Of a stretch of 64,000 bases of DNA, positions 19,268 through 40,869 are shown one piece after another (the first letter of the stretch is position 1; each line of letters opens with the position of its first letter). The translations under genes and the position numbers were made by a program. The stretch lies in the sequence record MK977694.1. One strand, given 5' to 3'. The notes under the pieces were generated by a model, which made no database searches, was not told where the DNA came from, and was given only the letters and a program-made list of their open reading frames with translations. Origin of the DNA: Escherichia phage vB_EcoM-Sa45lw.

Positions 19268-21036
19268 AAAAGCCACAAGAAATGCAAACGATGCGTAGAA
19301 AAGTTATTTCAGATAATAAACCAACACAGGACGCGGCTAAATCCGCTTCTAATACTTTATCTGGTCTTAATGACATTTCTACAAAATTAGATGATGCTCA
19401 AGCTGCTTCTGAATTAATAGCTCAGACTGTTGAAGAAAAATCAAATGAAATAGTTGGAGCAATTGATAACGTTGAAAGCGCAGTAAGTGATACTACTGCC
19501 GGTTCTGAGTTAATTGCTGAAACTGTTGAAATTGGAAACAATATTAATAAAGAAATCGGTGAATCGCTCGGAAGCAAATTAGATAAATTAACAAGTTTAC
19601 TGGAACAAAAAATTCAGACAGCTGGAATTCAGCAAACTGGAACGAGTTTAGCAGTAGTCGAAAATGCTATTCCTGTTAAAGTCGTCGAGGATGATACAGC
19701 TGAATCTGTGGGTCCTTTATTACCGGCTCCTGAAGCAGTTAATAATGATCCTGATGCTGATTTTTTCCCTACTCCTCAGCCAATTGAACCAAAACAAGAG
19801 TCTCCAGAAGAGAAGCAAAAAAGAGACGCATTTAACTTAAAAATATCTAATGCATTAGATAAATTAACAAAGACAGTTGATTTCGGATTTAAGAAATCTA
19901 TTTCAATTACTGATAAAATATCTAGTATGCTATTTAAGTATACCGTCAGTGCTGCTATTGAAGCTGCTAAAATGGTTGCATTGATAATGGCTGTTGTTAT
20001 TGGAATAGACCTGCTGATGGTTCATTTTAAATACTGGTCAGATAAATTTTCAAAAGCCTGGGATTTATTTAGCACTGATTTTACTAAATTCTCTAGCGAA
20101 ACCGGAACATGGGGTCCTTTATTACAGAGCATCTTTGATTCTATTGATAAAATTAAACAACTTTGGGAAGCTGGAGATTGGGGCGGATTGACAGTAGCTA
20201 TTGTTGAAGGGCTTGGAAAGGTTCTTTATAATTTAGGAGAACTTATTCAATTAGGTATGGCTAAATTATCTGCGGCAATTCTTCGAGTTATTCCTGGTAT
20301 GAAAGATACCGCTGATGAAGTAGAAGGAAGAGCGCTGGAAAATTTCCAAAATACTACAAATGCTTCTCTTAGCAAAGAAGATCAAGAAAAAGTTGCAAAT
20401 TATCAATATAAAAGAATGAATGACGATCTTGGTCCAATAGCAAAAGGATTAGACAAAATTGCGAACTGGAAAACTCGTGCTTCTAACTGGATTCGTGGTG
20501 TTGATAATAAAGAAGCACTAACGACTGATGAAGAGAGAGCAGAGGAAGAAGAAAAATTAAAGCAACTTTCTCCGGAAGAAGCTAAAATTGCTTTAATGAA
20601 AGCTAATGAAGCTCGTGCTGCTATGAATCGTTTTGAGCAATATGCCGATTCAGCTGATATGAGTAAAGACTCAACAGTTAAATCAGTTGAATCTGCCTAT
20701 GAAGACCTTAAAAAACGGATGGATGACCCGGATTTAAATAATTCACCGGCAGTTAAAAAAGAACTTGCTGCTAGATTTTCTAAAATTGATGCTACTTATC
20801 AGGAGCTCAAGAAAAATCAGCCTAATGCCAAACCTGAAACTTCTGCTAAATCACCAGAAGCAAAACAGGTCCAGGTGATTGAAAAGAACAAAGCACAACA
20901 AGCTCCTGTTCAACAAGCATCTCCTTCAATCAATAATACTAATAATGTTATTAAGAAAAATACTGTCGTTCATAATATGACACCTGTCACAAGCACAACT
21001 GCTCCTGGTGTATTTGGTGCGACGGGAGTTAATTAA
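19264..21036 (+). CDS. 29: Baseplate hub and tail length determining protein gp29
   Basis: 590 aa, T4 gp29 length; long helical tape-measure-like composition. Confidence 0.93.
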   Translation: MKKPQEMQTMRRKVISDNKPTQDAAKSASNTLSGLNDISTKLDDAQAASELIAQTVEEKSNEIVGAIDNVESAVSDTTAGSELIAETVEIGNNINKEIGESLGSKLDKLTSLLEQKIQTAGIQQTGTSLAVVENAIPVKVVEDDTAESVGPLLPAPEAVNNDPDADFFPTPQPIEPKQESPEEKQKRDAFNLKISNALDKLTKTVDFGFKKSISITDKISSMLFKYTVSAAIEAAKMVALIMAVVIGIDLLMVHFKYWSDKFSKAWDLFSTDFTKFSSETGTWGPLLQSIFDSIDKIKQLWEAGDWGGLTVAIVEGLGKVLYNLGELIQLGMAKLSAAILRVIPGMKDTADEVEGRALENFQNTTNASLSKEDQEKVANYQYKRMNDDLGPIAKGLDKIANWKTRASNWIRGVDNKEALTTDEERAEEEEKLKQLSPEEAKIALMKANEARAAMNRFEQYADSADMSKDSTVKSVESAYEDLKKRMDDPDLNNSPAVKKELAARFSKIDATYQELKKNQPNAKPETSAKSPEAKQVQVIEKNKAQQAPVQQASPSINNTNNVIKKNTVVHNMTPVTSTTAPGVFGATGVN

Positions 21037-23104: not shown

Positions 23105-23108
23105 CAAT

Positions 23109-23139
23109 GGGGACCGAAAGGTCCCCATGTTTTTATTTA
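23109..23139. terminator. Bidirectional terminator between gene 54 and the convergent alt.-3-like ORF
   Basis: GGGGACC-GAAA-GGTCCCC hairpin followed by TTTTTATTT on the plus strand; A/T-run on the other side. Confidence 0.6.
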
Positions 23140-23423
23140 CGGAATGAAATAAAAGCAGCAACTGAAGCAACAGAGGTTTCTTCAATATAAACCTCAATTT
23201 TTACCGGAGCTTCTGACTCAAATTTACCTGTTACTACACCCTGAAAAATACTTTCAGTCTGTTCTGGCTTTGAAAAATTTTCAGAAGGAAAAATTCCAAA
23301 CTTTTTATCGGTTCCGAAAATTTTAATAAATTCATCGTAAACTGCTTCATTAAAAGCATTATCAGCAGGAATAACGCCTTCAACTACAAGTTCTTGACCT
23401 AAAAAGCGCAAAGAAGATTTCAT
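23133..23423 (-). CDS. Hypothetical protein (T4 alt.-3 position)
   Basis: 96-aa ORF with SD GAGGA that lies inside the 54-bp repeat/early promoter. Confidence 0.7.
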   Translation of the reverse strand: MKSSLRFLGQELVVEGVIPADNAFNEAVYDEFIKIFGTDKKFGIFPSENFSKPEQTESIFQGVVTGKFESEAPVKIEVYIEETSVASVAAFISFRK

Positions 23424-23430
23424 TTTGTGT

Positions 23431-23484
23431 TCCTCATGTTATGTCAGTAAGACTACTATAACACAACACGAGGGACTTGTAAAC
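23431..23484 (-). promoter_or_regulatory. Early promoter plus SD; copy 1 of an exact 54-bp direct repeat
   Basis: Minus strand reads GTTTAC, 18-bp spacer, TGT-TATAGT extended -10, then GAGGA. Identical 54 bp occur at 39225-39278. Confidence 0.6.
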
Positions 23485-25541
23485 TACATTTTGAACTTTT
23501 TAGACATTCCGTTAATGTTAACCAAAGAAGCTAAGATTTGAGAAACTTCGTTTTCCTCTTCTTTTGATTCTTCTACAAGGAATTGATTAAATCCAGCCAT
23601 TGGACGAACTTCACCAGTTTCCATTAGATGGTCGCCATCATATACTGATTCTTCTAATTGTTCAGAAGGAGGAACGATTGTACCTTCGATTAGATACTTG
23701 TTATAAGCAGTTTCTTTCATAAAGTAAGTACTTACTTTATTAATCTTCAGTAAAATTCCACGTGGTAGAATAACTTCAGCTTCTGATGGAAATCCTGATA
23801 AATGACCCGGAACGATAACTTTAACTCGTTCAGCTCCTTTAATTACCATACCCACGCTAGTTTCAGCATCTTCATTAGCATATGTAGAATGACTACCCAT
23901 ATGCATCAAATCTTCTGCATCAACGGAACCTTCTCCTTCACCAGAAAATACTGCTCCGGAATCATCTAAGGCCATATAATTTTTACCATACTCACCAAAG
24001 ATATTTGGTTTAAGTGATGTAGATACGAAGTTCTTGAAATAGAACATTTTATTTTCAATGTTATGACGCAAAGTTTTAAAAGTAACTTCTTGTCCACGGT
24101 AAAGTGTAGTTCCTGGAGGAAGAACTGAACCTTTAGCAAACGCAGAATCCATAGTCTCGATGTGCTTAATAGCGCGCTCCATGTATTCTTCACGTGTAGA
24201 ATCAGGTTTACCTAAAAGGAATGAGTTCATTTCAACATACGAATCTGCACAATAATCTTCAATTACATCAGATTCAGCCTGAGTCAATCCTTTTGGAGTT
24301 ACTTCAGTGCTTGCATATTCATACGCCTGAGCAGCGGATTCATCAATTAATTTATAAATGCCATTCATGACAAATTGAATAATAGCTGTCTTTTCATCTG
24401 GCGTAGCTTTAGAACCTTTAACTAAATCATTGACAATTTTCTTAATAACATCAAAGCTATTAGAAATATTAATGTCAGCAAGATCGCTTAAAATTTTATC
24501 AGTTTTATAATCAAAGAATTCTTTATTCTTTAAATATTCTTGAGAACCTTGATATGTTATATCGCTCTGCAGCTTGATAGATGGATCACGTAAACGTGCA
24601 TGGGCTAATGCAATATGATTTCGGAAGCTTTCTAGTTCATAATCACTAGATTTAAAACGAGAAGCACTCCTCATACCACCGATAGCTCCTTTGCCGAAGT
24701 TTGAACCAATCTGAATAACGCCAGAGTTCATTGGTCCTTCTGCTTTATATACCGGAACTTTAGATTCAAACTCTTGATATTTCTTAGCAGCAAAGCTATC
24801 ACCCTGAAGTGAAGCATCAACAGTAGAATATTGAGCTTGTGCTGCTAATCGACGACTAATTTTAGTTTTCTGAATAACAGCTTGATCCGTACGCTTATCA
24901 TTTTCTAAAGCAATAGAAGCAGCAACTGCGACAGCTTTAGGAACAGCATTACCTGTTTTAACGTCTACATAAACATCACCGACTTTCGATTCAACTTTTG
25001 TGAATAACTCAGTTGAAATAGGAGGTACACCTGGAATGTCTTCTAAATTGGCATTTTTACGGTAAACCATAATATATGCATATTTCTTATCATAGTCCCA
25101 GATTTCCTTTAAAAGAACATATCGACCTGCTCCTTTAGTACGTACTAAACGGTCAGCAATAACTTGCATTTGACGAGCAGCGCCATTTGTTTTACTTTTT
25201 AGTACGCGGAATAGGCATGCATCAATTTTATACTGTTTCATTGTTTGAAGAGCAGTATCAAAAACCGCATTAATGACACCAATTGGATTTCCACCCAAGT
25301 TTTTAAGCTTAACTAACGATAATTTCTCATTAACACCTATCATTACGATATGCATCATTTTGTCGCCTGGCTTAACGTTTTTATTCGTATCACCGCCAGA
25401 GGTGTATGTACAAAATCGAAATCCAGGAAGAACGCTTTCTTCACCGGCTTGAATAGCAAAAATTTGAGGTATTTTATGCTTAGGATTTAAGTTAACAACC
25501 GGCGCCGAAGCGCCGTCAAATAATTCTGTAATAAGTTCCAT
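23484..25541 (-). CDS. Alt-family ADP-ribosyltransferase paralog, intact
   Basis: 685 aa; N-terminus MELITELFD... nearly identical to Alt over about 65 aa; C-terminal domain carries R (LYRGQ), STS (FVSTSL) and EAEVILPRG motifs. Confidence 0.85.
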   Translation of the reverse strand: MELITELFDGASAPVVNLNPKHKIPQIFAIQAGEESVLPGFRFCTYTSGGDTNKNVKPGDKMMHIVMIGVNEKLSLVKLKNLGGNPIGVINAVFDTALQTMKQYKIDACLFRVLKSKTNGAARQMQVIADRLVRTKGAGRYVLLKEIWDYDKKYAYIMVYRKNANLEDIPGVPPISTELFTKVESKVGDVYVDVKTGNAVPKAVAVAASIALENDKRTDQAVIQKTKISRRLAAQAQYSTVDASLQGDSFAAKKYQEFESKVPVYKAEGPMNSGVIQIGSNFGKGAIGGMRSASRFKSSDYELESFRNHIALAHARLRDPSIKLQSDITYQGSQEYLKNKEFFDYKTDKILSDLADINISNSFDVIKKIVNDLVKGSKATPDEKTAIIQFVMNGIYKLIDESAAQAYEYASTEVTPKGLTQAESDVIEDYCADSYVEMNSFLLGKPDSTREEYMERAIKHIETMDSAFAKGSVLPPGTTLYRGQEVTFKTLRHNIENKMFYFKNFVSTSLKPNIFGEYGKNYMALDDSGAVFSGEGEGSVDAEDLMHMGSHSTYANEDAETSVGMVIKGAERVKVIVPGHLSGFPSEAEVILPRGILLKINKVSTYFMKETAYNKYLIEGTIVPPSEQLEESVYDGDHLMETGEVRPMAGFNQFLVEESKEEENEVSQILASLVNINGMSKKFKM

Positions 25542-25544
25542 GAT

Positions 25545-27638
25545 TTATCCTTGAACGAACTTGTAAGGCATGTTTGTAATATCTATGCAAGACGCAATAA
25601 TTCCAAGAGATGATTCTACTTTCTGTTTAATATTTGATGAAACAAATGATGCAAAGTCAACTCTGTCTTCTATTTCAATATCACCTGTCATTGCAACCAA
25701 TTCACCAGTTTCCATTAAATGGTCTCCATCATAGATTACCGATTCGGTGAGCTCTTCCGTGGTCATAACTTCAGCTTGAATGAGTTTTGTATTATTAGAT
25801 GTTGTTCCGTCATTATTAGAAGCATCAGTTATTTTATTAACCTTGACCATCAATCCGCGTGGTAGAATAACTTCAGCTTCTGTTGCTATTCCGAGACTTC
25901 CTGGATATACAACATTAACTTTATGAGCTCCATCAATTGCCCATCCTATTTGAACTTTAACATATTCAGGATTTTCTTTATACGCTCTTATTTCGTTTGG
26001 ATTAATAGTTATTCCTTCTTCATTTTTATCAACTGTTAATTCGTTACGAGCTTCTGGTTCTAAAAGACCAATACCAGCATGTGTGATTCCAAAACGTCCA
26101 AAAATGATAGGAGTTAAAGAAGTAGATACAAAATTTCTGAAGTAGAACACTTTATTTTTAACTAACGCTTCATATATAGGAGCAGTCATACTTTGAGCAC
26201 GATAAACTGTAATGCCTTCTGGTATACGGTCACCATTTTCAAAAGCTGAATCTAAGTTATTTATAGCAGATTCAATTTCTTTTTCACTCATTACATCGTA
26301 TCGTTCTGGATTGTAACGACCTAAAAGAAGATTATTGATGTCAGTATATCCTGAACCGCAATATTCTCTAATGCCACGCTTTTGTGATGGAGTATATTTA
26401 GAACCATCGCGGGCAATAGTAATATCAATCATTGGACCAGCACCAATTCCAGAAAAACTGTAAATCATTCGTTTGAGGAATTTAGTTTTTGCTGCGTTCC
26501 AGGAATTTTTAGTTATTTCTTCCCAGACTTCATCTGGTTGTCCTTTACGATTTTTATTATGATTAGCAAGCCATTTATCTTTATAATCTTCAAAGAATTG
26601 ATTTACAGCTGCTGCGTATTTCTCTAAACATTTTATTGAAGTAGTTGGTTCATTTTTAATTGCATTAAAAATTACTTCTTTAATTTTTTCTGAAACTTCA
26701 CCGACTTGACTCATTGGAAAGAATTTATAATCATAGTGAAGTTCATCTGCCGTTCCTTCAGCAATAATTTTTGCTGCCTTTGTTTTAGAAGCTAATGAAT
26801 TAATTCCAATTTTCATTTCTTCTGCTTCGGGAATTAAAGGTGCAGTAGCTGGTTTATTAAAATTAGCTGCTGTAGATTCATACTTCTGGAATAATTCACT
26901 TTCAAATCTAGAAGATTCCAATGACTGACTTTGTGCAATTGCTCTACGGGAAATTTTAACTTTAACGATTACGGCTTGGTCAGAACGTTTATCATTTTCT
27001 TGTGCAATAGATGCAGCAATTGCCTCATTTTTGGTTACTTGAGCTCCAGTATCTTTATTGATATAAACATCACCGACCTTCGATTCAACTTTAGTAAAAA
27101 GCTCGGTGCTAATTTCTGGAACTCCTGGAATGTCTTCTAGTGATACATTTTTACGATGTATAAGAATATATGCATACTTTTTATCGTAATCCCAGAGTTC
27201 CTTAAGAAGGACGTATCTGCCACCTGAACGACTGCGGATGAGTCTATCAGCAATAAGTTGAATTTGTCGAGCTTGACCGGCGGTTTTAGACTTAAGAATA
27301 CGAAGCATGCAGGCATCAATTTTATATTGACGCATTGTTTGCATTGCAACAGTAAAAACTGAATTGATATAATTAATCGGGCTTGGACCAAGACCTTTTA
27401 ATTTAGCAATTGAACCTTTAGCAGTTAATGTAAAAGGAACAATGTGCATCATTTTATCGCCCATCTTTAAATCACGATTAGTATCACCTCCAGATGTATA
27501 GGTACATAAACGAAAGCCTGGTTGTTCAATTGCATCATCAACATGAACTGAAAAAATTTGTGGTATTTTCTTCTTTGGATTTAAGTTTGTAATCGGAAGA
27601 GTAGTATCTTCGTCAAATAATTCTGTAATAAGTTCCAT
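25545..27638 (-). CDS. alt: Alt, virion-packaged ADP-ribosyltransferase
   Basis: 697 aa; N-terminus MELITELFDEDTTLPITNL matches recalled T4 Alt; R (VYRAQ), STS and EAEVILPRG motifs. Confidence 0.93.
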   Translation of the reverse strand: MELITELFDEDTTLPITNLNPKKKIPQIFSVHVDDAIEQPGFRLCTYTSGGDTNRDLKMGDKMMHIVPFTLTAKGSIAKLKGLGPSPINYINSVFTVAMQTMRQYKIDACMLRILKSKTAGQARQIQLIADRLIRSRSGGRYVLLKELWDYDKKYAYILIHRKNVSLEDIPGVPEISTELFTKVESKVGDVYINKDTGAQVTKNEAIAASIAQENDKRSDQAVIVKVKISRRAIAQSQSLESSRFESELFQKYESTAANFNKPATAPLIPEAEEMKIGINSLASKTKAAKIIAEGTADELHYDYKFFPMSQVGEVSEKIKEVIFNAIKNEPTTSIKCLEKYAAAVNQFFEDYKDKWLANHNKNRKGQPDEVWEEITKNSWNAAKTKFLKRMIYSFSGIGAGPMIDITIARDGSKYTPSQKRGIREYCGSGYTDINNLLLGRYNPERYDVMSEKEIESAINNLDSAFENGDRIPEGITVYRAQSMTAPIYEALVKNKVFYFRNFVSTSLTPIIFGRFGITHAGIGLLEPEARNELTVDKNEEGITINPNEIRAYKENPEYVKVQIGWAIDGAHKVNVVYPGSLGIATEAEVILPRGLMVKVNKITDASNNDGTTSNNTKLIQAEVMTTEELTESVIYDGDHLMETGELVAMTGDIEIEDRVDFASFVSSNIKQKVESSLGIIASCIDITNMPYKFVQG

Positions 27639-27662
27639 GTTATCCTCTCTAGTGTTTATTCT

Positions 27663-27670
27663 ATTTATAA
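27663..27670 (-). promoter_or_regulatory. T4-type late promoter upstream of alt
   Basis: TATAAATA on the minus strand about 25 bp upstream of the alt ATG, followed by SD AGAGAGGA. Confidence 0.55.
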
Positions 27671-27694
27671 AATTAAAGGCCCGAAGGCCTTTAA

Positions 27695-27880
27695 TTAATA
27701 GAGAGCTAAAAGAGTACGATATACTTCAAACTTTGGACCTTTTTCATATGGATCAAATCTTTCCGTGAATTCATCATATGCTAGTTTATCTGGGAATTCA
27801 AGAATAACCTGCGATACCGCAGTGGAAACATCTCCACCTTCTTTTTGAGCCACGACAATTGTTTCTAAGTAAGCTTTCAT
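27695..27880 (-). CDS. Hypothetical small protein between gene 30 and alt
   Basis: 61-aa ORF, ATGA-coupled to the gene 30 stop. Confidence 0.55.
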   Translation of the reverse strand: MKAYLETIVVAQKEGGDVSTAVSQVILEFPDKLAYDEFTERFDPYEKGPKFEVYRTLLALY

Positions 27881-29340
27881 AAACCAGTTACCTCATGAAA
27901 ATCGCCAAATACATCTTCGAACGTATTAGCTTTAGTTTTATCTTCACGTAAACGAATTGCAATTGGAAGAAATAGCTTAACGTAATCAGTACGTCCATCT
28001 AATTTTACCCAGCCGTTGCATTCGCACTCTAGAATTTTTCCAATATAATAATTTTGGTTTTCCATAATGCGAGTACGATCAAGTTCATGCGATTTTATAC
28101 CGGCTTTATCTTTTAAGCCTGAACCAGCATTTACTTTAATTTTTCCACACTCTGATTCAAGAATGAAACCACCTGCTTTAGTAGGGTCTTTACGGTGAGG
28201 ATAAATTCCTACAATTTTTAAATCAACATCAATTACTTCTTTAAATTTATAAAGATTTTTTGAACGAGCATTTTCCCATAATCCATCGATATTTTTGAGA
28301 ATAATACCTTCAAGACCTTGGTCAATATACTTTTTATAAATTACCTTAGCTTCATCTAGGTTATTTACTATCTGGTTTTCAATTAAAATTACTTTATCAT
28401 AGCCTGATGTCATTTGTTCTAGTTTAGAAAAACGTACATCATATTTTAAACGAAATGCTGGAAGACCATATATTTCTACTAATGGAACATAGTCCCAGAC
28501 CTGAAACTTCATGCATTGTGCTTCTTTTTCAGAAATGGTTCCCTTTAAAGATTTATTAGCGATTCCATTAGAAGTAGTACGTGATTCAGCTACTTCGGCG
28601 AATTCTTTAGCTTTACTAATTTCAGGATAAGCATCAAAAAGAAAATCTAGGCCTTCTGGTTCCTTTTCAACTTGCTCATGGTATACCAATTCGCCATCAA
28701 TTAACACACCTTCTGGATGAATCTGGCGAGCTTCTGCAGTCATTTTGATTAACTCTTCCTTGAGAAGATCTAATCCTAGATATTCATTACCAGCTCGTGA
28801 TAAAAGACGAACATCATCTAATTCATCACCTCTGACTTCAGCAAAGCACCGAGCTCCATCAGCTTTTAACTGGGCAAAAGCTGGAAATTTGATATTCTTA
28901 TTAATGCCTTTTTCATCATAAGAACTTGCCAGCATTTGAGGTTGTTCAGGAATTAAACCTGGCCAAACTTTGTTTGCAATAGATACTGATGCACCACATT
29001 CAAGGTCTCGCATCATCACCCGACGCAAAACTTCAACATCATCTTTTTTACCGTCAGCAATATATCCAGTTAATTCCTCAATTGCCGCATTTCCGGTCAA
29101 TTTCCGAGTAGCTAACGTGAATTCAATGAAGTCAAGCATATCGGTAAGAGTCAACATTCCAAAACTCTGGGTAGTAATACCCGGTTTAGGCCATTTCTTG
29201 ATATAATACTGTAACCCACGAGAATAAGTCAGACGATATACTCGTTTAAGCAATTCATTATCTTTATTCTTTTCAAGAATTGCTTGCTTCTGCTTAGTTG
29301 AACCAATAGATGCTATTTCGTTCAGAATTTTAAGAATCAT
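27877..29340 (-). CDS. 30: ATP-dependent DNA ligase gp30
   Basis: 487 aa, T4 DNA ligase length; N-terminus MILKILNEIASIGSTKQKQAILEKNKDNELLKRVYRLTYSRGLQYYIKKWPKPG; adenylation lysine motif KADGAR. Confidence 0.97.
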   Translation of the reverse strand: MILKILNEIASIGSTKQKQAILEKNKDNELLKRVYRLTYSRGLQYYIKKWPKPGITTQSFGMLTLTDMLDFIEFTLATRKLTGNAAIEELTGYIADGKKDDVEVLRRVMMRDLECGASVSIANKVWPGLIPEQPQMLASSYDEKGINKNIKFPAFAQLKADGARCFAEVRGDELDDVRLLSRAGNEYLGLDLLKEELIKMTAEARQIHPEGVLIDGELVYHEQVEKEPEGLDFLFDAYPEISKAKEFAEVAESRTTSNGIANKSLKGTISEKEAQCMKFQVWDYVPLVEIYGLPAFRLKYDVRFSKLEQMTSGYDKVILIENQIVNNLDEAKVIYKKYIDQGLEGIILKNIDGLWENARSKNLYKFKEVIDVDLKIVGIYPHRKDPTKAGGFILESECGKIKVNAGSGLKDKAGIKSHELDRTRIMENQNYYIGKILECECNGWVKLDGRTDYVKLFLPIAIRLREDKTKANTFEDVFGDFHEVTGL

Positions 29341-29606
29341 TGTTCATCCTTTAGAGTTTGGTTTACAGCTCTATTATAAATCAATTCATCATTAAGCTCA
29401 GTCAAAGACCTGTGATACGTGGTTCTAACTTTATTTCCTTGCATCCAGTGCTTGACGTAAATGAAACCTTGCTCTACACATTTTTTAAAAATTCGTTCGT
29501 CTTTTTGAGCTCGGAATTCTGGATTGCATCTAAAAAATTGATTTACGTGACCGTAATCACGTGTAGTATTACCTTCATTTTCATAAATAGTGTGAACAAC
29601 AAACAT
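29337..29606 (-). CDS. Hypothetical protein (T4 30.1 position)
   Basis: 89-aa ORF, overlap-coupled to neighbours. Confidence 0.7.
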   Translation of the reverse strand: MFVVHTIYENEGNTTRDYGHVNQFFRCNPEFRAQKDERIFKKCVEQGFIYVKHWMQGNKVRTTYHRSLTELNDELIYNRAVNQTLKDEQ

Positions 29607-30442
29607 TAGAATGCTCCTTGGAAAATATTATCACCGCTAGTAGGTCTATTATACAAATACTCTATGCCACCAGGTTTAATATAGTTCCATGTCTGAAACG
29701 GATGCGTCTGATATGGATGATATAGATTATAAGGATTAAATCCAGGAGTTCTCCAGGTAGTGTTCCAAGGAAAAGAATCGTTTTTAATCATCTTTTCAAT
29801 TACATCTTTTATAGCTTTTTCACTATCAAAACTTTCTTTATTTTCCTTCGATGGAAAAAGCTTATTCTCTACATCATTCCATGTATAAACTCGCTGTGCA
29901 GTTTTTGGAATACTGTCACGCTCCCCTCGAGCCATCCAATAAACAGGAACATTTAATATTTCACTCGCGTGATCGCAGTGGTGAGCGAGATCGTCAATAT
30001 AACAAATTACGTTATATTTCTCTTTTGCCTTTTTGAACAACTCTTCTTTTGAAGAATCATGACCACACATCAATACTTCTGAGAAGGCACCAGGAAAAAG
30101 AGCATTCAAATTAAATTGACGATTCAGCAGAGCGTCAATAGAATCACCCAATGCTGTAACAGCTACAAAATTATAATCTTCTTTTAATTTGTTAATTACA
30201 CATAGAGCATCTTTATATGGAGACAAATAACGAATAAAATCTGAACGATTATACTTTTCGATTAATTTAACACCAAGTTCTTCATCGCAATTAAAGAGCT
30301 TACCAGGAGAAATAAATTTTTCGTCCTGAATCATTTTTAAAATATGTTCTAATGGAAGATTATATTTTTGGGCAAAATAAGGAAGACCTGATTGCCAGCT
30401 TAAACATACACCATCAATATCAGTCAAAATAGTAGGCTTCAT
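29606..30442 (-). CDS. HAD-superfamily-like hydrolase (T4 30.2 position)
   Basis: 278 aa; N-terminal ILTDIDGV fits HAD motif I (DxDG); later CYIDD fits an acidic motif IV. Confidence 0.65.
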   Translation of the reverse strand: MKPTILTDIDGVCLSWQSGLPYFAQKYNLPLEHILKMIQDEKFISPGKLFNCDEELGVKLIEKYNRSDFIRYLSPYKDALCVINKLKEDYNFVAVTALGDSIDALLNRQFNLNALFPGAFSEVLMCGHDSSKEELFKKAKEKYNVICYIDDLAHHCDHASEILNVPVYWMARGERDSIPKTAQRVYTWNDVENKLFPSKENKESFDSEKAIKDVIEKMIKNDSFPWNTTWRTPGFNPYNLYHPYQTHPFQTWNYIKPGGIEYLYNRPTSGDNIFQGAF

Positions 30443-30903
30443 AGAGAGTCTCTTAATAGGTTTAACACATCAATAAATTCAGCTTCGGTTAGTATTGTAT
30501 CATCTTTTGTTAGACCACTAGCCATGCTGTGCTTCAAAACTTTTCCTTTCGAGGCTTGTAATGCATCACGAAAGCCCTTGTTTTGGATCGCTGCTTCAAA
30601 ATATGCATTTGTGTATAATTCTTTCCACGCCGGGGAGTATCTTGAAAACGGAACTCCAAGCCAGAAGAGGGTCCCACGGTCCTGAGCTCTAGCATAAGAC
30701 CTTCCAGCTTGTTGGGCGGCAAGCCCGGATAACCCAAATATACGACGTTGTTGTTCAACATTTTTCACCTTGCATCCTTGGAGGAATCCTTCAAGACCTC
30801 CAAATTGAATACCATCCATAACGAAAGGCCATTGGGCGAAATTACTTAATGCACATGATGGCCACCTAAAATTGCTTCTAATCTCTAACTCAGACATTTT
30901 CAA
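30439..30903 (-). CDS. NADAR (YbiA/DUF1768-like) domain protein (T4 30.3 position)
   Basis: 154 aa; LSNFAQWPFVMDG resembles the E. coli YbiA core FSNFAAWPIKVDG. Confidence 0.75.
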   Translation of the reverse strand: MKMSELEIRSNFRWPSCALSNFAQWPFVMDGIQFGGLEGFLQGCKVKNVEQQRRIFGLSGLAAQQAGRSYARAQDRGTLFWLGVPFSRYSPAWKELYTNAYFEAAIQNKGFRDALQASKGKVLKHSMASGLTKDDTILTEAEFIDVLNLLRDSL

Positions 30904-31096
30904 TGCTTATAATTTCAACATCAGCCCAATGACCATAGCAAGGAAGACGAAATTCAACTGGCCAGTTAGGGTCCTTTTCTAATATAATAGACTCAACTCG
31001 TGGTTCTTCATGTTCATCAGTATATGGATTTTTATCTGTTACTTTATATGTGACCTTAATGTACTGAATTCCAAAAATCTTATTAATTATATTCAT
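30890..31096 (-). CDS. Hypothetical small protein
   Basis: 68-aa ORF in the tightly packed 30.x block. Confidence 0.6.
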   Translation of the reverse strand: MNIINKIFGIQYIKVTYKVTDKNPYTDEHEEPRVESIILEKDPNWPVEFRLPCYGHWADVEIISIENV

Positions 31097-31290
31097 ACTA
31101 ATTCCTTTAATCCGTAAATAGGAGATAATTCATCACCCATGCGAAGGTCTTCATTTCCATCTACCCAAGAAACAATATAAGCCTCTTTTATTTGAATACC
31201 ACTCCATTTAAATGGAGGTAGAACCTTAGAAATTAATCCAGGTATACCAACTCCCTTTAATTCAACAGTTTGACCTAAAAAGAATTTCAT
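31093..31290 (-). CDS. Hypothetical small protein
   Basis: 65-aa ORF, ATGA-coupled. Confidence 0.6.
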   Translation of the reverse strand: MKFFLGQTVELKGVGIPGLISKVLPPFKWSGIQIKEAYIVSWVDGNEDLRMGDELSPIYGLKELV

Positions 31291-31577
31291 TAGAACCTCA
31301 TCTGAAAGCCGTGTGATTTAACATTACCGCCGCCAATATCAGAAATATTAATTTCACGCGCAATTGAAGGGTCAATGTCAATTTCACGATTAAGTTTAGC
31401 TATAGCTAAAGTATCACGCCCATTTACTGTACGGAATTCTAAAGGACAAACCACATCAACATAATTTTTAATCGATTCACTGGTAGGTTGCAAATGAGCA
31501 GGAAGGTCTTTAGGCGCCTTAGAGAAAACAACTTCACAGAAATTTTTGCGGGTATCAAAATAAGTAGTCATAAACAT
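31290..31577 (-). CDS. Hypothetical protein
   Basis: ORF track extends to 31628 through a GC hairpin; ATG at 31577 with SD GAGGAAAA is the likelier start (95 aa). Confidence 0.6.
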   Translation of the reverse strand: MFMTTYFDTRKNFCEVVFSKAPKDLPAHLQPTSESIKNYVDVVCPLEFRTVNGRDTLAIAKLNREIDIDPSIAREINISDIGGGNVKSHGFQMRF

Positions 31578-31617
31578 AGTATTTTCCTCAGTAAGGGGCC
31601 GAAGCCCCTGTTTTATT

Positions 31618-31983
31618 TTAAATATCAAATTCGTTAAGAACTACATCAAAGATTGCTTCAAGATGCTCAGGTTTAGCTCTGTTACTCAAAATATGACGAA
31701 TCCAAGTTTTAACCAGAAGCTTACGATTAGCGCCATTCCAGCAAGGATGGGTCCCTAAATCGCGTTGACGAAAATCATCATCCAGAGCGATTTTGAAGTT
31801 TGAACCTTCCATTGTGATTGAAACCGTGATGCCATTTTCAAATCGCATATAAACGTAGTTAGGAGTCATATACTGTTCAATTTCGCATACTGATCCATTT
31901 TGATGTTTCCAAAGGCAAATAGTATCAATAGAACCTGCAATACCATTAGAAACATATTTACGTTCAAAGTTGATGTAGTTCAT
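31618..31983 (-). CDS. Hypothetical protein
   Basis: 121-aa ORF in the 30.x block. Confidence 0.65.
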   Translation of the reverse strand: MNYINFERKYVSNGIAGSIDTICLWKHQNGSVCEIEQYMTPNYVYMRFENGITVSITMEGSNFKIALDDDFRQRDLGTHPCWNGANRKLLVKTWIRHILSNRAKPEHLEAIFDVVLNEFDI

Positions 31984-32051
31984 TTTTATTCTCCGAGATG
32001 TTTAATTGCGGTACAGGTATATAATATCATATCCTGTACCAAAGTAAACAA

Positions 32052-32384
32052 TTATTTTACTACTTTCCAGTGCTTCATGTCAAGTTTACCAACTTTTTTC
32101 ATCTTCTCAATCAAACGTTCGGCACGTTGGCGAGCTGTAACATAATACCATTCGCCTAATTCATTTTGTTCAATTTTTCCAACGATTACTGTATTCAATT
32201 CATAAATCCAACCAGTAAAGAAATTATGAACTTGAATTGTAAAGGTGAAATCTGTTCCCATACCTTCTGTTGTTTCTACTTCAATAATATCACCTTCAAT
32301 TGCCATTAAGAACCACATAGTTTCATCATATTTACCATTGAAGCATTTAGTCTTAACTGCAGCGTTCAGATTAATCGTTTTCAT
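32052..32384 (-). CDS. Hypothetical protein
   Basis: 110-aa ORF preceded by an early promoter. Confidence 0.65.
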   Translation of the reverse strand: MKTINLNAAVKTKCFNGKYDETMWFLMAIEGDIIEVETTEGMGTDFTFTIQVHNFFTGWIYELNTVIVGKIEQNELGEWYYVTARQRAERLIEKMKKVGKLDMKHWKVVK

Positions 32385-32411
32385 TTTATTCTCCTTTGTT
32401 TGTGTAAGATA

Positions 32412-32441
32412 ATACTATCACAAAGGAACCATACTGTAAAC
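32412..32441 (-). promoter_or_regulatory. Sigma70-type early promoter for the 110-aa ORF
   Basis: Minus strand GTTTAC, 18-bp spacer ending GTGA, TAGTAT; -10 lies 28 bp upstream of the ATG. Confidence 0.5.
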
Positions 32442-32461
32442 AACTTTATGCAATCTTTGGA

Positions 32462-32490
32462 AAATAAAAAAGGACTCCCGAAGGAGTCCT
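32462..32490 (-). terminator. Intrinsic terminator downstream of the 30.9-like ORF
   Basis: Minus strand GGACTCC-TTCG-GGAGTCC followed by TTTTTT. Confidence 0.55.
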
Positions 32491-32494
32491 TAAC

Positions 32495-32671
32495 TTATGC
32501 TTTCTGCTTACCAAAACGAGAAGCATCATCTCGAAGAACCGCACGTGCTCGGCGCATGATCTTCTCAACAGTTTGATTGATACGAGAGTTCGACCCACGC
32601 TTGTAGCCAGCGCGTTTAGAATCACCAACTTTCTTTTCAACTGCTTTCTTTGCTTTAGCTTGTTTTGCCAT
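32495..32671 (-). CDS. Small lysine/arginine-rich protein (T4 30.9 position)
   Basis: ORF track starts at 32713; ATG at 32671 with SD AGAGAA gives 58 aa beginning MAKQAKAKKAVEKK. Confidence 0.6.
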   Translation of the reverse strand: MAKQAKAKKAVEKKVGDSKRAGYKRGSNSRINQTVEKIMRRARAVLRDDASRFGKQKA

Positions 32672-32914
32672 TATAAATTCTCTTTTAAATGAAAATGCAG
32701 GACTTATTGGCATTGCCTGCGCAAGCCCTCAAGGGGAACATAGGTTTTGGATATTTAACGACAGGATAACCATAAACCCGTCATCATTCACATTCAAGAG
32801 GTACACCATAAAACTGCCGGGATCTTAAAACTATAATGATTCGCAAATCATTAATCAGACAGTTCGATGGCTCCTCGATTTTAGCTCACACTAAGGCAGT
32901 GAATCTCCAATAAA

Positions 32915-33163
32915 TTACTTCAGTGTTACCACAAAGTGACGAACTGCTTTTCGTGCAGCAGAAGCCAGAGGCTTAGCATACTTAAGTTCATCTTTTTCCT
33001 GAAGCTCAGCAGCTAATGCAGTTTGAGCAGGATTCAGATGTTTGAAATAACGCAGGATTTCAAGAGCTTCGGCTTCAACATCAATAGATGCGCCATAGTT
33101 TTCGTGACCATTATTCCATGCGTTTCGTTGCAGTTCAAGAGCGTGTTGTAATTGTTTAATCAT
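32915..33163 (-). CDS. rIII: rIII lysis inhibition accessory protein
   Basis: 82 aa, T4 RIII length; N-terminus MIKQLQHALELQRNAWNNGHENYGASIDVEAEALEILRYFKHLNP. Confidence 0.9.
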   Translation of the reverse strand: MIKQLQHALELQRNAWNNGHENYGASIDVEAEALEILRYFKHLNPAQTALAAELQEKDELKYAKPLASAARKAVRHFVVTLK

Positions 33164-33310
33164 TTAAAAATTCTCGTTAGAGATTAAAACTCGGTAGTCA
33201 CGTTCTTCTGAATTTCATCTTCTTTCGACAGATCTCTCAGTTGTAGACTACCACATAGAATTGTTCGGTTAACTTATTATTCCGACACCCAATTCATATT
33301 ATTATTTATA

Positions 33311-33646
33311 TCACTTATAAAGACACGGAATAGCTTTATAGTGACAAGTAACGAATTTTTGTTTAATTTCTTTTGGCTGCTTAAGACCCAGAGCTACAAA
33401 AGGATGCGGAACATTTCGAATTTGACCAACTGGAAGAGAAGTCAAATCACCAACTTCGCAGAAACCTTCAGGAACATCAGGACCGACAGAGTGAACTACA
33501 CACAGTTCAGGAACTTCACCTTGAACACGTTTACCGATAATAAGTCCTGATTCTGTAACTTCTTCATCACCGGCTTGTGCGGGTTCAGAAACTAAAATAA
33601 CATATTCACCGACAGCACGAATTGGTAACTGTTGTACTTCAGACAT
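33311..33646 (-). CDS. 31: Co-chaperonin gp31 (GroES-like)
   Basis: 111 aa, T4 gp31 length; N-terminus [45 protein letters not shown]. Confidence 0.95.
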
Positions 33647-33676
33647 CGTTTTTCCTTTTTGTTAACAGATGAATTA

Positions 33677-33701
33677 ATAATAACAAATAATTCTTAAAGC
33701 A
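33677..33701 (-). promoter_or_regulatory. MotA-dependent middle promoter for gene 31
   Basis: Minus strand AAATGCTTTA (MotA box), 12-bp spacer, TATTAT; -10 lies about 31 bp upstream of the gene 31 ATG. Confidence 0.45.
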
Positions 33702-33702
33702 T

Positions 33703-34011
33703 TTATTTACCAATAAATTGGAGTAAATGCTCAACTTTCATACCATTAACAGAAATCAATTTGTCAATAGAAAAACCTCGCCACTCGCCAAGCTCAACAT
33801 CAAATACTGGAATCATGTCAGTAGATTCTTTCCGAGTAGATTCAGTCAATTTACCAGTTTGCATAGTTGGCATAAAGTCTGCATCACGCGTACCTTTCAT
33901 AGTACGAATAGTACCATCAGACTTTTCAAAAACTACGTTTGAAACACCCATGGACAGTTTAGTTTTCAAAATTTCACGAATTGCTACTTTCTGCTCAGTT
34001 GTCAGTTTCAT
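33703..34011 (-). CDS. Hypothetical protein (T4 31.1 position)
   Basis: 102-aa ORF. Confidence 0.7.
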   Translation of the reverse strand: MKLTTEQKVAIREILKTKLSMGVSNVVFEKSDGTIRTMKGTRDADFMPTMQTGKLTESTRKESTDMIPVFDVELGEWRGFSIDKLISVNGMKVEHLLQFIGK

Positions 34012-34248
34012 TTATTTACCTATCACAGTTTTAATATGAGTTGTTCCACGTTCTTTAAGGGTGGAAAGTAATTTTTGGCATTTTTCTAAATCAGATTTCC
34101 AACTATATGGTCTATCAATACTAGTCCAATCAGTTTTATAATACTGTTTCCATTTAGAGAAAAAATATTTCTTATACTCTACAGCAAACGAGATGTTCTC
34201 GTTAGAATAAGAACTAATTGCTGTAAGCTTTACCAAACGAAATTTCAT
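34012..34248 (-). CDS. Hypothetical protein (T4 31.2 position)
   Basis: 78-aa ORF overlapping the cd start by one base. Confidence 0.65.
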   Translation of the reverse strand: MKFRLVKLTAISSYSNENISFAVEYKKYFFSKWKQYYKTDWTSIDRPYSWKSDLEKCQKLLSTLKERGTTHIKTVIGK

Positions 34249-34829
34249 TATTCACCACAGAATTCGTTGATATTTTCCCAGTTTAACTTATTCAAGTTTT
34301 TCTTAGGAACATTAAACACTTCAATACCTGCATTTCGCAGAATATCATCCCAGCCAGGTTTATTTTTATCGTATGTTTCGCAATAAACCAGTTTTTTAAT
34401 ACCAGATTGAGCTATCGCTTTTGCACAATCTGGACAAGGAGAAAGTGTTACATACATAGTAGCACCTTCAATAGAAGAACCATTTCGTGCAGCAAACAAA
34501 ATTGCATTTAGTTCAGCATGAATTTCATTTTTAGACGACCATTCAGAGTGAGCACTACGATGTTCTTTAGCCAAGACAAAGCGATCAGTTGAACCAAATG
34601 ATACGCATTCAGGTTTATGGCCTTGAATGATAGTGTGTTTAGGCTTATTCAACAACCAACCTTGCTCAGCAGCATAATCACAACAGTTCACACCACCAGC
34701 AGGTGAACCATTATATCCGGTAGAAATAATACGTCCATTCTTTTCAATTACTGCTCCTACCTTCCAGGAGCAACATTTTGATTCCTGCGATACTAAATAT
34801 GCAATTTGAAGTACTGTACTCGCTTTCAT
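34248..34829 (-). CDS. cd: dCMP deaminase
   Basis: 193 aa, T4 Cd length; zinc-binding motifs HAELNAI and PCPDCAKAI. Confidence 0.95.
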   Translation of the reverse strand: MKASTVLQIAYLVSQESKCCSWKVGAVIEKNGRIISTGYNGSPAGGVNCCDYAAEQGWLLNKPKHTIIQGHKPECVSFGSTDRFVLAKEHRSAHSEWSSKNEIHAELNAILFAARNGSSIEGATMYVTLSPCPDCAKAIAQSGIKKLVYCETYDKNKPGWDDILRNAGIEVFNVPKKNLNKLNWENINEFCGE

Positions 34830-35164
34830 TTCATAATCACCAGATAAGCAGATTTAGCAGTTTCAACACGATAAATTTCGTGACGAAGTTTAGTTATACT
34901 TTTAATAACAGAACTAATTATATTCTGCCCATCTTTAAAGCGGTTTTTCTTATCAATAAAAATTGCACCAACCATCTTTTTGTGAAGCTCAACTGGATAC
35001 TTCGTCACAATAATAGCATCATACACAGAAGGATGAATACTATTCACTAGAGTGTCATTCATTAAAGTTATTCTAATGAACTGAGCTGTTTCAGAGTCAA
35101 GCGCTCTATGATCGCCAGTATCATTTTCAAGACAATTATCAATTATATCAGTTAAATTCATCAT
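34826..35164 (-). CDS. Hypothetical protein (cd.1 position)
   Basis: 112-aa ORF, ATGA-coupled. Confidence 0.65.
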   Translation of the reverse strand: MMNLTDIIDNCLENDTGDHRALDSETAQFIRITLMNDTLVNSIHPSVYDAIIVTKYPVELHKKMVGAIFIDKKNRFKDGQNIISSVIKSITKLRHEIYRVETAKSAYLVIMK

Positions 35165-35397
35165 AGTACGCCATACACCCTTTGTGCTTCAACTAATCCA
35201 TCAAAATCCAATTTGAGATGTGTTATTTGGTCACCATCACCTGGATTCACAATTACTAATACTGAACGAGGAGTTTCTGTAATAACACGAACCGATGTTT
35301 CTGGAAATCGTTCAGAAACCTTATTTACCAATTCTTGAGCAAATAGTTTAACTTTTTCTTGGAATTCTTTAACAGTAATTGGTTTTTCGCTTAGCAT
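35161..35397 (-). CDS. Hypothetical protein (cd.2 position)
   Basis: 78-aa ORF, ATGA-coupled. Confidence 0.65.
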   Translation of the reverse strand: MLSEKPITVKEFQEKVKLFAQELVNKVSERFPETSVRVITETPRSVLVIVNPGDGDQITHLKLDFDGLVEAQRVYGVL

Positions 35398-35918
35398 GTT
35401 GATCCTAGCTCCTTACTTTCAACGTTTTTAACTAATTTGACAGAAACTAATTCAGCATCTTGGGTAATCATTACCGGGCCTTCTTCATACTCTTCAAGAT
35501 ATTCTAGAGCTTTGTTTTTAGCTTCTTCCTTCGTATCAGTTTGAGCATAGATATAGAACATACAACCAGTAATACCTACTACTTTCCACTTAATTTCTTT
35601 ATCAGTTTTAATTTCAAATTTACTGACAGAATCATCTTTTTGAACTTCTTCGAAAAAAGAATATTCTAACATATAAGTAATTGAAAATAACGGGCTAACT
35701 TTATAGGATTCGCCCATTACATCAACAGCTTTATACCAACAGTCATCAATTTCGCGTTTAATGCTAATAACATTTTTCGCAGGATCTATTTTTACTTTAA
35801 ATGAATTTTCCCCAATAAACTGGGCAATTCGTTTATTAGCCCCGCAAGTTTCATTAAAAATATCTTTATACCCAGTTTTAAAGCGATAAACCTTATCTTC
35901 TTCAAACCATTCGCTCAT
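35391..35918 (-). CDS. Hypothetical protein (cd.3 position)
   Basis: 175-aa ORF preceded by an early promoter. Confidence 0.7.
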   Translation of the reverse strand: MSEWFEEDKVYRFKTGYKDIFNETCGANKRIAQFIGENSFKVKIDPAKNVISIKREIDDCWYKAVDVMGESYKVSPLFSITYMLEYSFFEEVQKDDSVSKFEIKTDKEIKWKVVGITGCMFYIYAQTDTKEEAKNKALEYLEEYEEGPVMITQDAELVSVKLVKNVESKELGSTC

Positions 35919-35948
35919 TTCAATTTCCTCGTTTGTTTTGGTAGAGCT

Positions 35949-35978
35949 ATAATATCACAACTCTACCGTAAAGTAAAC
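35949..35978 (-). promoter_or_regulatory. Sigma70-type early promoter for the cd.3-position ORF
   Basis: Minus strand GTTTAC, 18-bp spacer ending TGTGA, TATTAT; -10 lies 31 bp upstream of the ATG. Confidence 0.5.
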
Positions 35979-35980
35979 TA

Positions 35981-36286
35981 TTAAATTGCTTTGAATTCTG
36001 ATGTCTGTGATTCAAAACGAATGTCGCCTTTGATAACTAGCTCAGCATCAAGACCGAATACAACAATGATATGCGCGGAACCTGGATACAACGTGATGGC
36101 AACAGAATCCACCTGGTCTGGAAGCAAAGTGTTCAATACATGAGTCACTTGAGCATGAATTCGAAGCTCGGCTGCGTTATCAAGCTTTTCAAACATATTA
36201 TTAGCGATAATTTGACTAAACACTACTTCTACAATTTTAGAATAAGTCGGAAACATATTTACCTCACATAATTTTCTTCGAGCCAA
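35981..36286 (-). CDS. Hypothetical protein (cd.4 position)
   Basis: 101-aa ORF. Confidence 0.65.
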   Translation of the reverse strand: MARRKLCEVNMFPTYSKIVEVVFSQIIANNMFEKLDNAAELRIHAQVTHVLNTLLPDQVDSVAITLYPGSAHIIVVFGLDAELVIKGDIRFESQTSEFKAI

Positions 36287-36459
36287 TCAATAACATCCAA
36301 CGCATTATCAAAAGTTGAACCATCTACTTTGTCTTCTGTTTCATAATCAAGAACATCTAAGCCTAATCTTCCGTTAACAATAGGCCATAAACAAAATAGA
36401 TATTTCTTTTCTTTTTCAATTTTATCACAAAGACGATAAATCTTTTCTATGTTATTCAT
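36259..36459 (-). CDS. Hypothetical protein (cd.5 position)
   Basis: 66-aa ORF overlapping neighbours. Confidence 0.6.
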   Translation of the reverse strand: MNNIEKIYRLCDKIEKEKKYLFCLWPIVNGRLGLDVLDYETEDKVDGSTFDNALDVIDWLEENYVR

Positions 36460-36645
36460 AAGTTTTCCATGGTAAAGGCAGTTTAGTTTTCTTTACTGTT
36501 AGTTCAACATCAGGATTCTTTTCTCTTAATTTAAGGCATTCCTCCCAAGCTCTGATTTCACTAGTGAATACACAAAATTGCCCATTACTAGTACCGACTA
36601 AACCACTATTTACAATAATAGCCCAAGTTTCATGATGCCACGCCA

Positions 36646-36646
<1 letters not shown>
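36452..36646 (-). CDS. Hypothetical small protein
   Basis: 64-aa ORF overlapping the pseT start by one base. Confidence 0.6.
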
Positions 36647-37846
<1,200 letters not shown>

Positions 37847-37850
<4 letters not shown>

Positions 37851-38077
37851 TTATTTTTCTCAACCAATGATTGAATATAATCATGCAGGTCTTTAGATGC
37901 TTTACCCCACTTATTTTGATATTCATTTTTGAGATTAGCGCGTGATTGAGCTAATAAAACATCATTAGTTGGAGGTAAAGATTCTAATCGTTGAATCTGT
38001 CGTCCATAAATCATTGCAGCCATCTCGGATTCATAAATTAATCCTTTTAGATGTTCAAATTGATACCATGAAATCAT
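37847..38077 (-). CDS. Hypothetical protein
   Basis: 76-aa ORF, overlap-coupled. Confidence 0.6.
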
Positions 38078-38373
38078 TTACATTTATCCTCTTTTAGCTC
38101 TTGACGATAATAACATATCATAGTTTTCTGGTCATGTACATATCGTTTTACATCATTAAGCCAAATACGAAATTCCTGAGAATCTTCAAATGGCATACCT
38201 ACCCAAGCTTTACCATCAATAACTTTAACTTGCCAAGATAGTTTAGCTTCGTCATATGACTTTATTTGCACAGGCCAATTAGGATGAACTGTTTCTTTCT
38301 TTACTTCTAGAGGCTTTGTCGAACAACCAACTAGAAGACCAATAGATAATATTACTGCAGATAATTTAATCAT
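38074..38373 (-). CDS. Outer-membrane spanin (Rz1-like lipoprotein; T4 pseT.2 equivalent)
   Basis: 99 aa; signal peptide with lipobox LLVGC; directly downstream of the i-spanin candidate. Confidence 0.75.
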   Translation of the reverse strand: MIKLSAVILSIGLLVGCSTKPLEVKKETVHPNWPVQIKSYDEAKLSWQVKVIDGKAWVGMPFEDSQEFRIWLNDVKRYVHDQKTMICYYRQELKEDKCK

Positions 38374-39220: not shown

Positions 39221-39224
39221 AAAG

Positions 39225-39278
39225 TCCTCATGTTATGTCAGTAAGACTACTATAACACAACACGAGGGACTTGTAAAC
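39225..39278 (-). promoter_or_regulatory. Early promoter plus SD; copy 2 of the exact 54-bp direct repeat
   Basis: Identical to 23431-23484; SD GAGGA followed by the alc-like ATG. Confidence 0.6.
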
Positions 39279-39281
39279 AGC

Positions 39282-40869
<1,588 letters not shown>

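Follow-up and report, generated by a model that had tools for sequence, protein, structure and literature searches.

In the promoter-early stem-loop (PeSL) elements described by Arbiol et al. (2010, PMC2839356) and Comeau et al. (2014, PMC4122927), an upstream stop codon is followed by an early promoter, a stem-loop that overlaps the -10 box and contains G-T/G.U pairs, a Shine-Dalgarno (SD) sequence, and a start codon. These elements favor variable regions with small genes that lack a known function. They were proposed by their authors to act as terminators, attenuators, or insulators against upstream transcription, and in phages RB49 and phi1, mini-circles arise by recombination between PeSL pairs that have one to three small ORFs between them (PMC2839356). 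A different use of hairpins is known for the T4 genes e, soc, 49, and I-TevI (Uzan and Miller, 2010, PMC3014915), where the SD/AUG is hidden in a long RNA, and transcripts from a promoter within the helix are made without the 5′ arm and are translated. The internal promoter of these genes is late (TATAAATA) and the silenced RNA is early. The T4 early promoters (Pe; Hinton, 2010, PMC2988021) have a GTTTAC -35 element, a TGn motif, a TAnnnT -10 box, and an upstream A/T-rich region. The repeated cassette examined here is an instance of the PeSL class and is also present in T4. Added here, as predictions, are the geometry of its hairpin, the cross-genus conservation of this hairpin ahead of alc, and signs of exchange between the two copies.

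The DNA analyzed (64,000 nucleotides of Escherichia phage vB_EcoM-Sa45lw, MK977694.1; hereafter the window) belongs to Tequatrovirus, and the genes in it were identified from the annotation of Shigella phage SH7 and from Pfam. The same 54-nt sequence, GTTTACAAGTCCCTCGTGTTGTGTTATAGTAGTCTTACTGACATAACATGAGGA, is read on the minus strand at two places (Table 1). The copies have no mismatches, and a pattern search of the window found no third copy at three or fewer mismatches. None of 100 dinucleotide-preserving shuffles of the window contained a match, and none is expected by chance. A repeat search of the window returned the pair as a 100% identical family (D7) with a spacing of 15,794. The identity ends abruptly at both edges, with copy 1 lying between ...aaaatgta and acacaaaatg and copy 2 between ...actaagct and ctttatgatg. 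The exact repeat reported in the preliminary description is real, and its placement before alt.-3 and alc agrees with the gene context.

Copy 1 lies ahead of a DUF5498 gene and beside the variable alt paralogue region, and copy 2 lies ahead of the conserved alc. The stop codon of the second Alt-like gene (TAG) overlaps the first base of copy 1 (23484), and that of rnlA (TAA, 39282-39284) is located 3 nt ahead of copy 2. The start codons are at 23421-23423 for alt.-3, the final gene of a leftward unit ahead of gene 54, and at 39218-39220 for alc, which has a second ATG at 39215-39217. Over 321 bp around copy 1, the window matches Shigella phages SH7 and Sf23, Escherichia phage MLF4, and others at 100% identity; the alc copy of SH7 differs from the 54-mer by 1 nt.

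Table 1. Coordinates of the two cassette copies, their elements, and the neighboring genes in the window.
Feature	Position	Strand	Remarks
Cassette copy 1, 54 nt	23431-23484	-	Exact match; between stop codon of Alt-like gene 2 and alt.-3 homologue
Cassette copy 2, 54 nt	39225-39278	-	Exact match; between rnlA and alc
-35 hexamer TTTACA (GTTTAC in T4 early-promoter notation)	copy 1 23478-23483; copy 2 39272-39277	-	Promoter scan
TGn-extended -10, TGTTATAGT	copy 1 23455-23463; copy 2 39249-39257	-	Promoter scan
Predicted transcription start (A, cassette position 37)	copy 1 23448; copy 2 39242	-	Predicted from promoter geometry
Predicted hairpin, 5′ arm, cassette positions 12-31 (promoter spacer and -10)	copy 1 23454-23473; copy 2 39248-39267	-	ViennaRNA
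Predicted hairpin, 3′ arm, cassette positions 36-53 (5′ UTR and GAGG of SD)	copy 1 23432-23449; copy 2 39226-39243	-	Predicted fold
Shine-Dalgarno GAGGA	copy 1 23431-23435; copy 2 39225-39229	-	Sequence
alt.-3 homologue, 96 aa	23133-23423	-	Pfam DUF5498; downstream of copy 1
alc, inhibitor of host transcription, 168 aa	38714-39220	-	Pfam ALC; downstream of copy 2
Alt-like ADP-ribosyltransferase paralogue 2	23484-25541	-	Upstream of copy 1
rnlA, RNA ligase 1	39282-40409	-	Upstream of copy 2
Block between the repeats: two alt paralogues, alt.1, gene 30 (DNA ligase), 30.1-30.9, rIII, 31, 31.1-2, cd, cd.1-5, pseT, pseT.1-3 (spanins), alc	23485-39224	-	SH7 annotation

Several other features of the window lie near copy 1 or are repeats themselves. 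The two Alt-like ADP-ribosyltransferase genes (685 and 697 aa; 23484-27638, minus strand) are full-length and in tandem. They are 70-82% identical in stretches at spacings of 2091-2097 in the repeat search, and 29 nt at their 5′ ends are repeated exactly (25514-25542 and 27611-27639). In T4, the second alt paralogue is reduced to the remnants alt.-1/alt.-2; this deletion stops approximately 19 nt short of cassette copy 1 on its upstream side and was not cassette-mediated. Genes 54 and alt.-3 converge on a GC-rich hairpin with a perfect 9-bp stem (ATGGGGACC-gaaa-GGTCCCCAT, 23107-23128); it has T-runs on both strands and resembles a bidirectional intrinsic terminator. Finally, three copies of a 68-nt unit (65-72% identical, spacings 120 and 483) at 53732-54402, together with a related 41-nt pair at 53960 and 54641, look like in-frame repeats in a structural (fibre-type) gene.

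For the promoter, a scan found TTTACA, a 17-nt spacer, and TATAGT with a TG ahead of the -10 box in both copies, and transcription is predicted to start 7 nt past this box. The gap from GAGGA to the ATG is 8 nt for alt.-3 and 4 nt for alc. By-eye counts of A+T in the approximately 20 nt upstream gave about 77% for copy 1 and 57% for copy 2, and copy 2 has a highly A/T-rich run farther upstream. One GenBank record labels the cassette site as a promoter. In the time-resolved transcriptome and proteome of T4 (Wolfram-Schauerte et al., 2022), both alt.-3 and alc fall in the class "early RNA, early protein"; of the upstream genes, alt is late and rnlA is early RNA/late protein. A literature search found no start-site mapping study of T4, and a search with the cassette sequence string returned irrelevant papers only. 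The sequence and the early expression in T4 agree with the preliminary description of an early promoter and SD, and a strong sigma-70 early promoter followed by a 5′ UTR and a GAGGA ribosome site is well supported. From the T4 expression classes, we infer that this promoter is active without phage proteins, as is the Pe class. The other GTTTAC-type promoters of the window (at 32441, 35978, 47982, and 32049) have only 36-38 positions identical to the cassette in alignments of 56-63 columns. Because of this low sharing, the 54/54 identity of the two copies goes well beyond the promoter consensus, as had been claimed.

The preliminary description overlooked that the 54-mer is also predicted to form a stable RNA hairpin with the SD in its 3′ arm. 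The predicted fold (ViennaRNA) has a free energy of -22.0 kcal/mol (z = -5.4), and none of 200 shuffles was as good. Positions 12-25 of the promoter spacer are predicted to pair with positions 40-53 (leader and GAGG), an inner 4-bp helix is added to this stem, and the loop region contains the -10 box together with the predicted start (about A37). The fold is strand-specific (-12.8 kcal/mol for the antisense strand) because it includes three G.U pairs. It is kept in 19 of 19 natural haplotypes, at -15.8 to -23.3 kcal/mol. Since the predicted start sits in the first bases of the 3′ arm, the cassette's own transcript would lack the 5′ arm. The predicted cost of opening the region from the SD to the AUG is 12.1 kcal/mol in read-through RNA versus 4.5 kcal/mol in RNA from position 37 for alt.-3, and 9.8 versus 1.7 kcal/mol for alc. 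For alc, the predicted probability of an unpaired SD rises from 0.03 in read-through RNA to 0.77 in the short transcript. For alt.-3, the corresponding values are 0.19 and 0.18; here, a weak alternative pairing is predicted to keep the SD largely paired even in RNA from position 37. Among the 19 Tequatrovirus haplotypes, covariation was weak and not significant, with one compensatory pair and 118 of 500 shuffles as good. The stem variants in this genus (G16.U to A-U, C15-G to U.G, a double change at U15-A50, and a few single mismatches) are only compatible with a functional hairpin. No Rfam family was found at either copy.

The same layout recurs with other sequences in other genera. Upstream of alc in five genera, the spacer of a GTTTAC promoter is complementary to its own ribosome site, and the stem sequences differ among Bragavirus (CCTCTCATTTT / AAAATGAGAGG), Karamvirus (TCTCCGTTTTTG / CAAAAACGGAGA), Jiaodavirus (ATCCTCGTCAG / CTGATGAGGAT), and Dhakavirus (TCTCCTCAT / ATGAGGAGA), with a weaker version in Marfavirus. 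Across these five genera, z scores for the spacer-leader duplex range from -3.0 to -7.2 against shuffled leaders. These scores were calculated per sequence in place of a six-genus alignment; a MAFFT/RNAalifold consensus of the alc-upstream cassettes of six genera had mis-registered stems and was meaningless. Pairing of the spacer with the SD upstream of alc is absent in Mosigvirus and Gualtarvirus, and at the alt.-3-like site it is found in Bragavirus and is absent in Karamvirus. The portion of the stem that is kept across genera is always the ribosome site itself. Pairing that persists while the sequence changes is the best evidence for a functional hairpin.

Predicted hairpins also enclose other early promoters of the window, with the SD hidden at 32441 and stems formed around the -10 box at 35978, 47982, and 32049. 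In the promoter upstream of the 30.8 homologue (GTTTACA-17-TAGTAT; 32382-32441, minus strand), the spacer (TTCCTTTGT) and the ribosome site (ACAAAGGAG) pair with each other in an SD-hiding layout like that of the 54-mer. Nearby, the Rhizobiales sRNA Atu_C8 gave a weak Rfam match (32456-32539, minus strand; 32.5 bits with a gathering score of 50, E = 0.003) that overlaps a terminator-like hairpin (32470-32491) and is probably a chance or terminator-driven match. In the record of phage vB_EcoM_SA20RB, several predicted T4 early promoters overlap predicted rho-independent terminators (e.g., 9195-9240 and 20807-20855 of our locus L028). The SA20RB annotation provides independent evidence, at the annotation level, that cassettes with a promoter inside a hairpin are common in Tequatrovirus.

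The distribution of the repeat was determined by blastn with the 54-mer, which found 997 places in 499 phage records (about two each), all with at least 90% identity. This count agrees with the 496 records that have an Alc at least 90% identical. T4 (NC_000866) has an exact alc copy (136283-136336) and an alt.-3 copy with one change (123040-123093). Among the 16 Tequatrovirus genomes with both copies recovered, the copies within a genome differ by 0-5 nt. A 30-mer megablast on cassette positions 14-43, which needs an exact 28-mer, located the reference core in 272 records and 362 places, corresponding to about 90 records (18%) with this core at both sites; exact identity of the copies is thus a frequent condition, though not the usual one. 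Searches of IMG/VR with Alc and Alt.-3 as anchors (five loci each) and a degenerate-pattern scan of metagenome contigs (eight) were also used; these were too few for statistics, for which GenBank phage records were taken instead. The comparison with related genomes thus places both copies at the same two sites in essentially all of the 499 records, and the repeat is a fixed, genus-wide feature of Tequatrovirus, T4 included. In genome scanning, it is to be read as such a feature and not as a sign of recent rearrangement or instability.

Among the 16 genomes, no fixed difference separates the alt.-3 site from the alc site. The distance between paralogues (2.4-2.6 nt) equals the diversity among orthologues (2.0 and 3.0 nt), and seven of the nine polymorphic positions of the alc copies have the same derived base in alt.-3 copies. 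Copies differ by 2.38 nt within genomes and by 2.60 nt between genomes, which is not significant (permutation p = 0.16). Two linked changes, A29+A32, were located at 66 places in 54 records. The genomes with flanks read (L010, L020, and L027) have this double variant at alt.-3 only, and so, as judged from record coordinates, do apparently most of the 54 records. In 11B_SA_NWU and KMB39, it is confined to alc (flanks verified). PP01 and G28 have it at both sites, and so, to judge by two places per record, probably do the UFV05-11 group and ZCEC15. Variant C27 (117 records, 122 places) is mostly found at alc. This partial differentiation of the sites, combined with occasional transfer of short patches, suggests ectopic gene conversion. 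Cassettes of the same build share approximately 60-70% of positions with the 54-mer, and a comparison with outgroup cassettes for a donor site gave 60-73% throughout, which is the consensus level, and favored neither site. Because same-build cassettes differ and the same two genomic sites hold different cassettes in Bragavirus and Karamvirus, function alone does not demand sequence identity; the identity therefore points to a Tequatrovirus-specific replacement of one cassette by the other.

Alternative explanations for the likeness of the two copies differ in plausibility. Nothing but the exactness of the match speaks for a recent strain-specific duplication or an assembly artefact. This reading is refuted by the occupation of both loci in records from many laboratories, with T4, T6, PP01, and metagenome assemblies among them; moreover, 54 bp is shorter than a typical read, so assemblers would neither collapse nor copy the repeat, and the probability left to it is negligible. 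Selection on a constrained promoter, leader, and hairpin could also keep the copies alike, with the shared variants arising by recurrent mutation and no exchange. These variants are indeed mostly transitions at loop or wobble positions, an overlap at eight sites is what chance predicts with about 15 free sites, and the non-significant excess of within-genome similarity is in line with this explanation. However, promoters of the same architecture carry quite different sequences, the Bragavirus and Karamvirus cassettes differ at these very sites, and the linked A29+A32 variant is found at either site or both. By a rough count, approximately four of about seven lineages with A29+A32 at alc also have it at alt.-3, compared with roughly 10% of genomes in the background, and selection without exchange appears improbable. 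The preliminary description raised the further prospect that the repeats mediate deletion or duplication of the 15.8-kb block, and a working substrate for deleting, duplicating, or circularizing this block would have a precedent in the mini-circles of RB49 and phi1. In T4, genes 30 (ligase) and 31 are essential, headful packaging provides a terminal redundancy of only a few percent, and 54 bp is near the minimum homology for efficient recombination. The last point favors such events, but because genes 30 and 31 lie inside the block and a 15.8-kb duplication exceeds the headful, both crossover products should be non-viable alone; non-crossover conversion would therefore be the only visible trace of copy pairing. 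No rearrangement of the block between the copies was found in about 20 genomes inspected, where copy order and orientation are constant at 13.2-15.8 kb apart, and the count of about two places per record also argues against it. The only genome with three copies is that of Escherichia phage vB_EcoM-G28 (L036, 3972-4674), in which a local 351-bp tandem duplication of the rnlA 3′ end, the cassette, and the 5′ part of alc has produced a third cassette and a truncated alc-like ORF; its junction is outside the cassette, and all three cassettes have A29+A32. Biologically relevant recombination of the block is thus very unlikely. Shuffling of promoter cassettes, the other suggestion of the preliminary description, belongs to the right family of ideas given the PeSL class: the comparative data point to exchange of short variants, and no crossover product was seen. 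As a separate observation, Gaprivervirus VR26 (L030, 10-757) has a 78-aa alc-like ORF directly ahead of the full alc, with no GTTTAC promoter before alc, and this ORF may represent a similar local duplication.

For the hairpin, the main alternative is that it acts on transcription, as a terminator, attenuator, or insulator against upstream RNA polymerase after which the promoter restarts synthesis, with the hiding of the SD being incidental. A PeSL stem-loop reduces expression of a downstream lacZ like a strong terminator (Arbiol et al., 2010, PMC2839356). The SA20RB GenBank record marks the hairpin of the alt.-3 copy as a rho-independent terminator (WebGeSTer), and the overlaps of several other early promoters with predicted terminators in that record point the same way. 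In addition, the stem of the alc copy runs on into the flank and is then followed by CUUUAUGAU. On the other hand, a terminator scan of the window called neither copy, the alt.-3 copy is followed by ACACAAAAUG without a U-run, and the part of the stem conserved across genera is the ribosome site, which a pure terminator does not require. A mainly transcriptional role is consequently a serious but rather unlikely explanation. Termination and SD hiding are not mutually exclusive.

The reading that we favor, and consider probable though far from assured, is that the repeat represents two copies of one self-contained PeSL early cassette, including gating at the RNA level and a history of conversion. 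The sigma-70 promoter would be fired by host polymerase immediately after infection, giving RNA from about position 37. This transcript would have an 18-nt leader that ends in GAGGA directly ahead of the alt.-3 or alc start codon; lacking the 5′ arm, it would leave the ribosome site open. Read-through RNA from the late alt-like gene or from rnlA would include both arms and would enclose the ribosome site in a hairpin of 14 + 4 bp. The likely effect, according to the predicted folds, is that Alc and Alt.-3 would be translated from the short early transcripts only. The hairpin may also attenuate or insulate upstream transcription. Alternatively, a ribosome at the upstream stop codon, 0-3 nt ahead of the cassette, could melt the base of the hairpin, resulting in translational coupling rather than a block. 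For the history of the copies, one cassette would have overwritten the other in an ancestor of Tequatrovirus, and the highly active recombination system of T4 would since have kept them interchangeable through occasional short-patch gene conversion without crossover. Crossovers would delete or duplicate approximately 13-16 kb with essential genes and would be lost. The start site, the translational gating, and the mechanism of conversion are what we infer in this account. A broader proposal, in which hairpin-embedded early promoters are a general temporal gate (for Alc, Alt.-3, and, e.g., 30.8) and the cassettes are kept alike by 54-bp conversion, is possible and offered tentatively.

If the temporal gate is true, no later read-through RNA would yield Alc or Alt.-3, and the two genes would share one expression program. 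Such gating would explain how Alc could be limited to the first minutes of infection despite later transcripts through alc. The shared polymorphisms would show, in a clean natural case, how a 54-bp regulatory cassette of a lytic phage evolves in concert, and would gauge how short a homology T4 recombination uses naturally.

Compared with the described systems, the cassette has the part order of the PeSL elements (Arbiol et al., 2010, PMC2839356; Comeau et al., 2014, PMC4122927), including a sigma-70-like promoter, an overlapping stem-loop, an upstream stop codon with an A/T-rich stretch, and an SD with a start codon. Its -10 box, TATAGT, fits the PeSL PST/T4 consensus (TTTACW-N17-TAYWAT) at five of six positions (G for A), and the A29 variant, TATAAT, fits it fully. 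PeSL copies serve as short homologies for exchange, and the same is proposed for the 54-nt cassette. However, the copies here are near-identical over 54 nt and are located 13-16 kb apart; because they flank essential genes, crossover products of this pair should not be viable. Moreover, the stems of the PST elements are placed just upstream of the promoter in the figure legend, whereas the stem here spans the promoter. Pairing between the spacer and the ribosome site is not discussed in the PeSL papers, and the words "translation" and "sequester" are absent from the 2010 text (PMC2839356). As a promoter, the cassette matches the T4 Pe class (Hinton, 2010, PMC2988021) in its -35, TGn, and -10 elements, its upstream A/T-rich region, and the early expression of the downstream genes, without an essential difference; it is one Pe promoter present twice. 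As in concerted evolution or ectopic conversion of short dispersed repeats, the paralogues have no fixed differences and share polymorphisms, but the tract is only 54 bp, the host genome is that of a lytic phage, and the evidence is of a population-genetic kind only. With regard to translation, alc and alt.-3 are not in the list of SD-sequestering hairpins of Uzan and Miller (2010, PMC3014915), and the cassette is predicted to follow the same logic as the hairpins of e, soc, 49, and I-TevI, with the SD hidden in long RNA and exposed in RNA from the internal promoter. It would work like this group but is not a member, because its internal promoter is of the early sigma-70 type. If the gating is true, the cassette would thus be the early-phase counterpart and mirror image of the T4 hairpins with an internal late promoter, in which an early promoter yields the translated RNA and the later read-through RNA is silenced.
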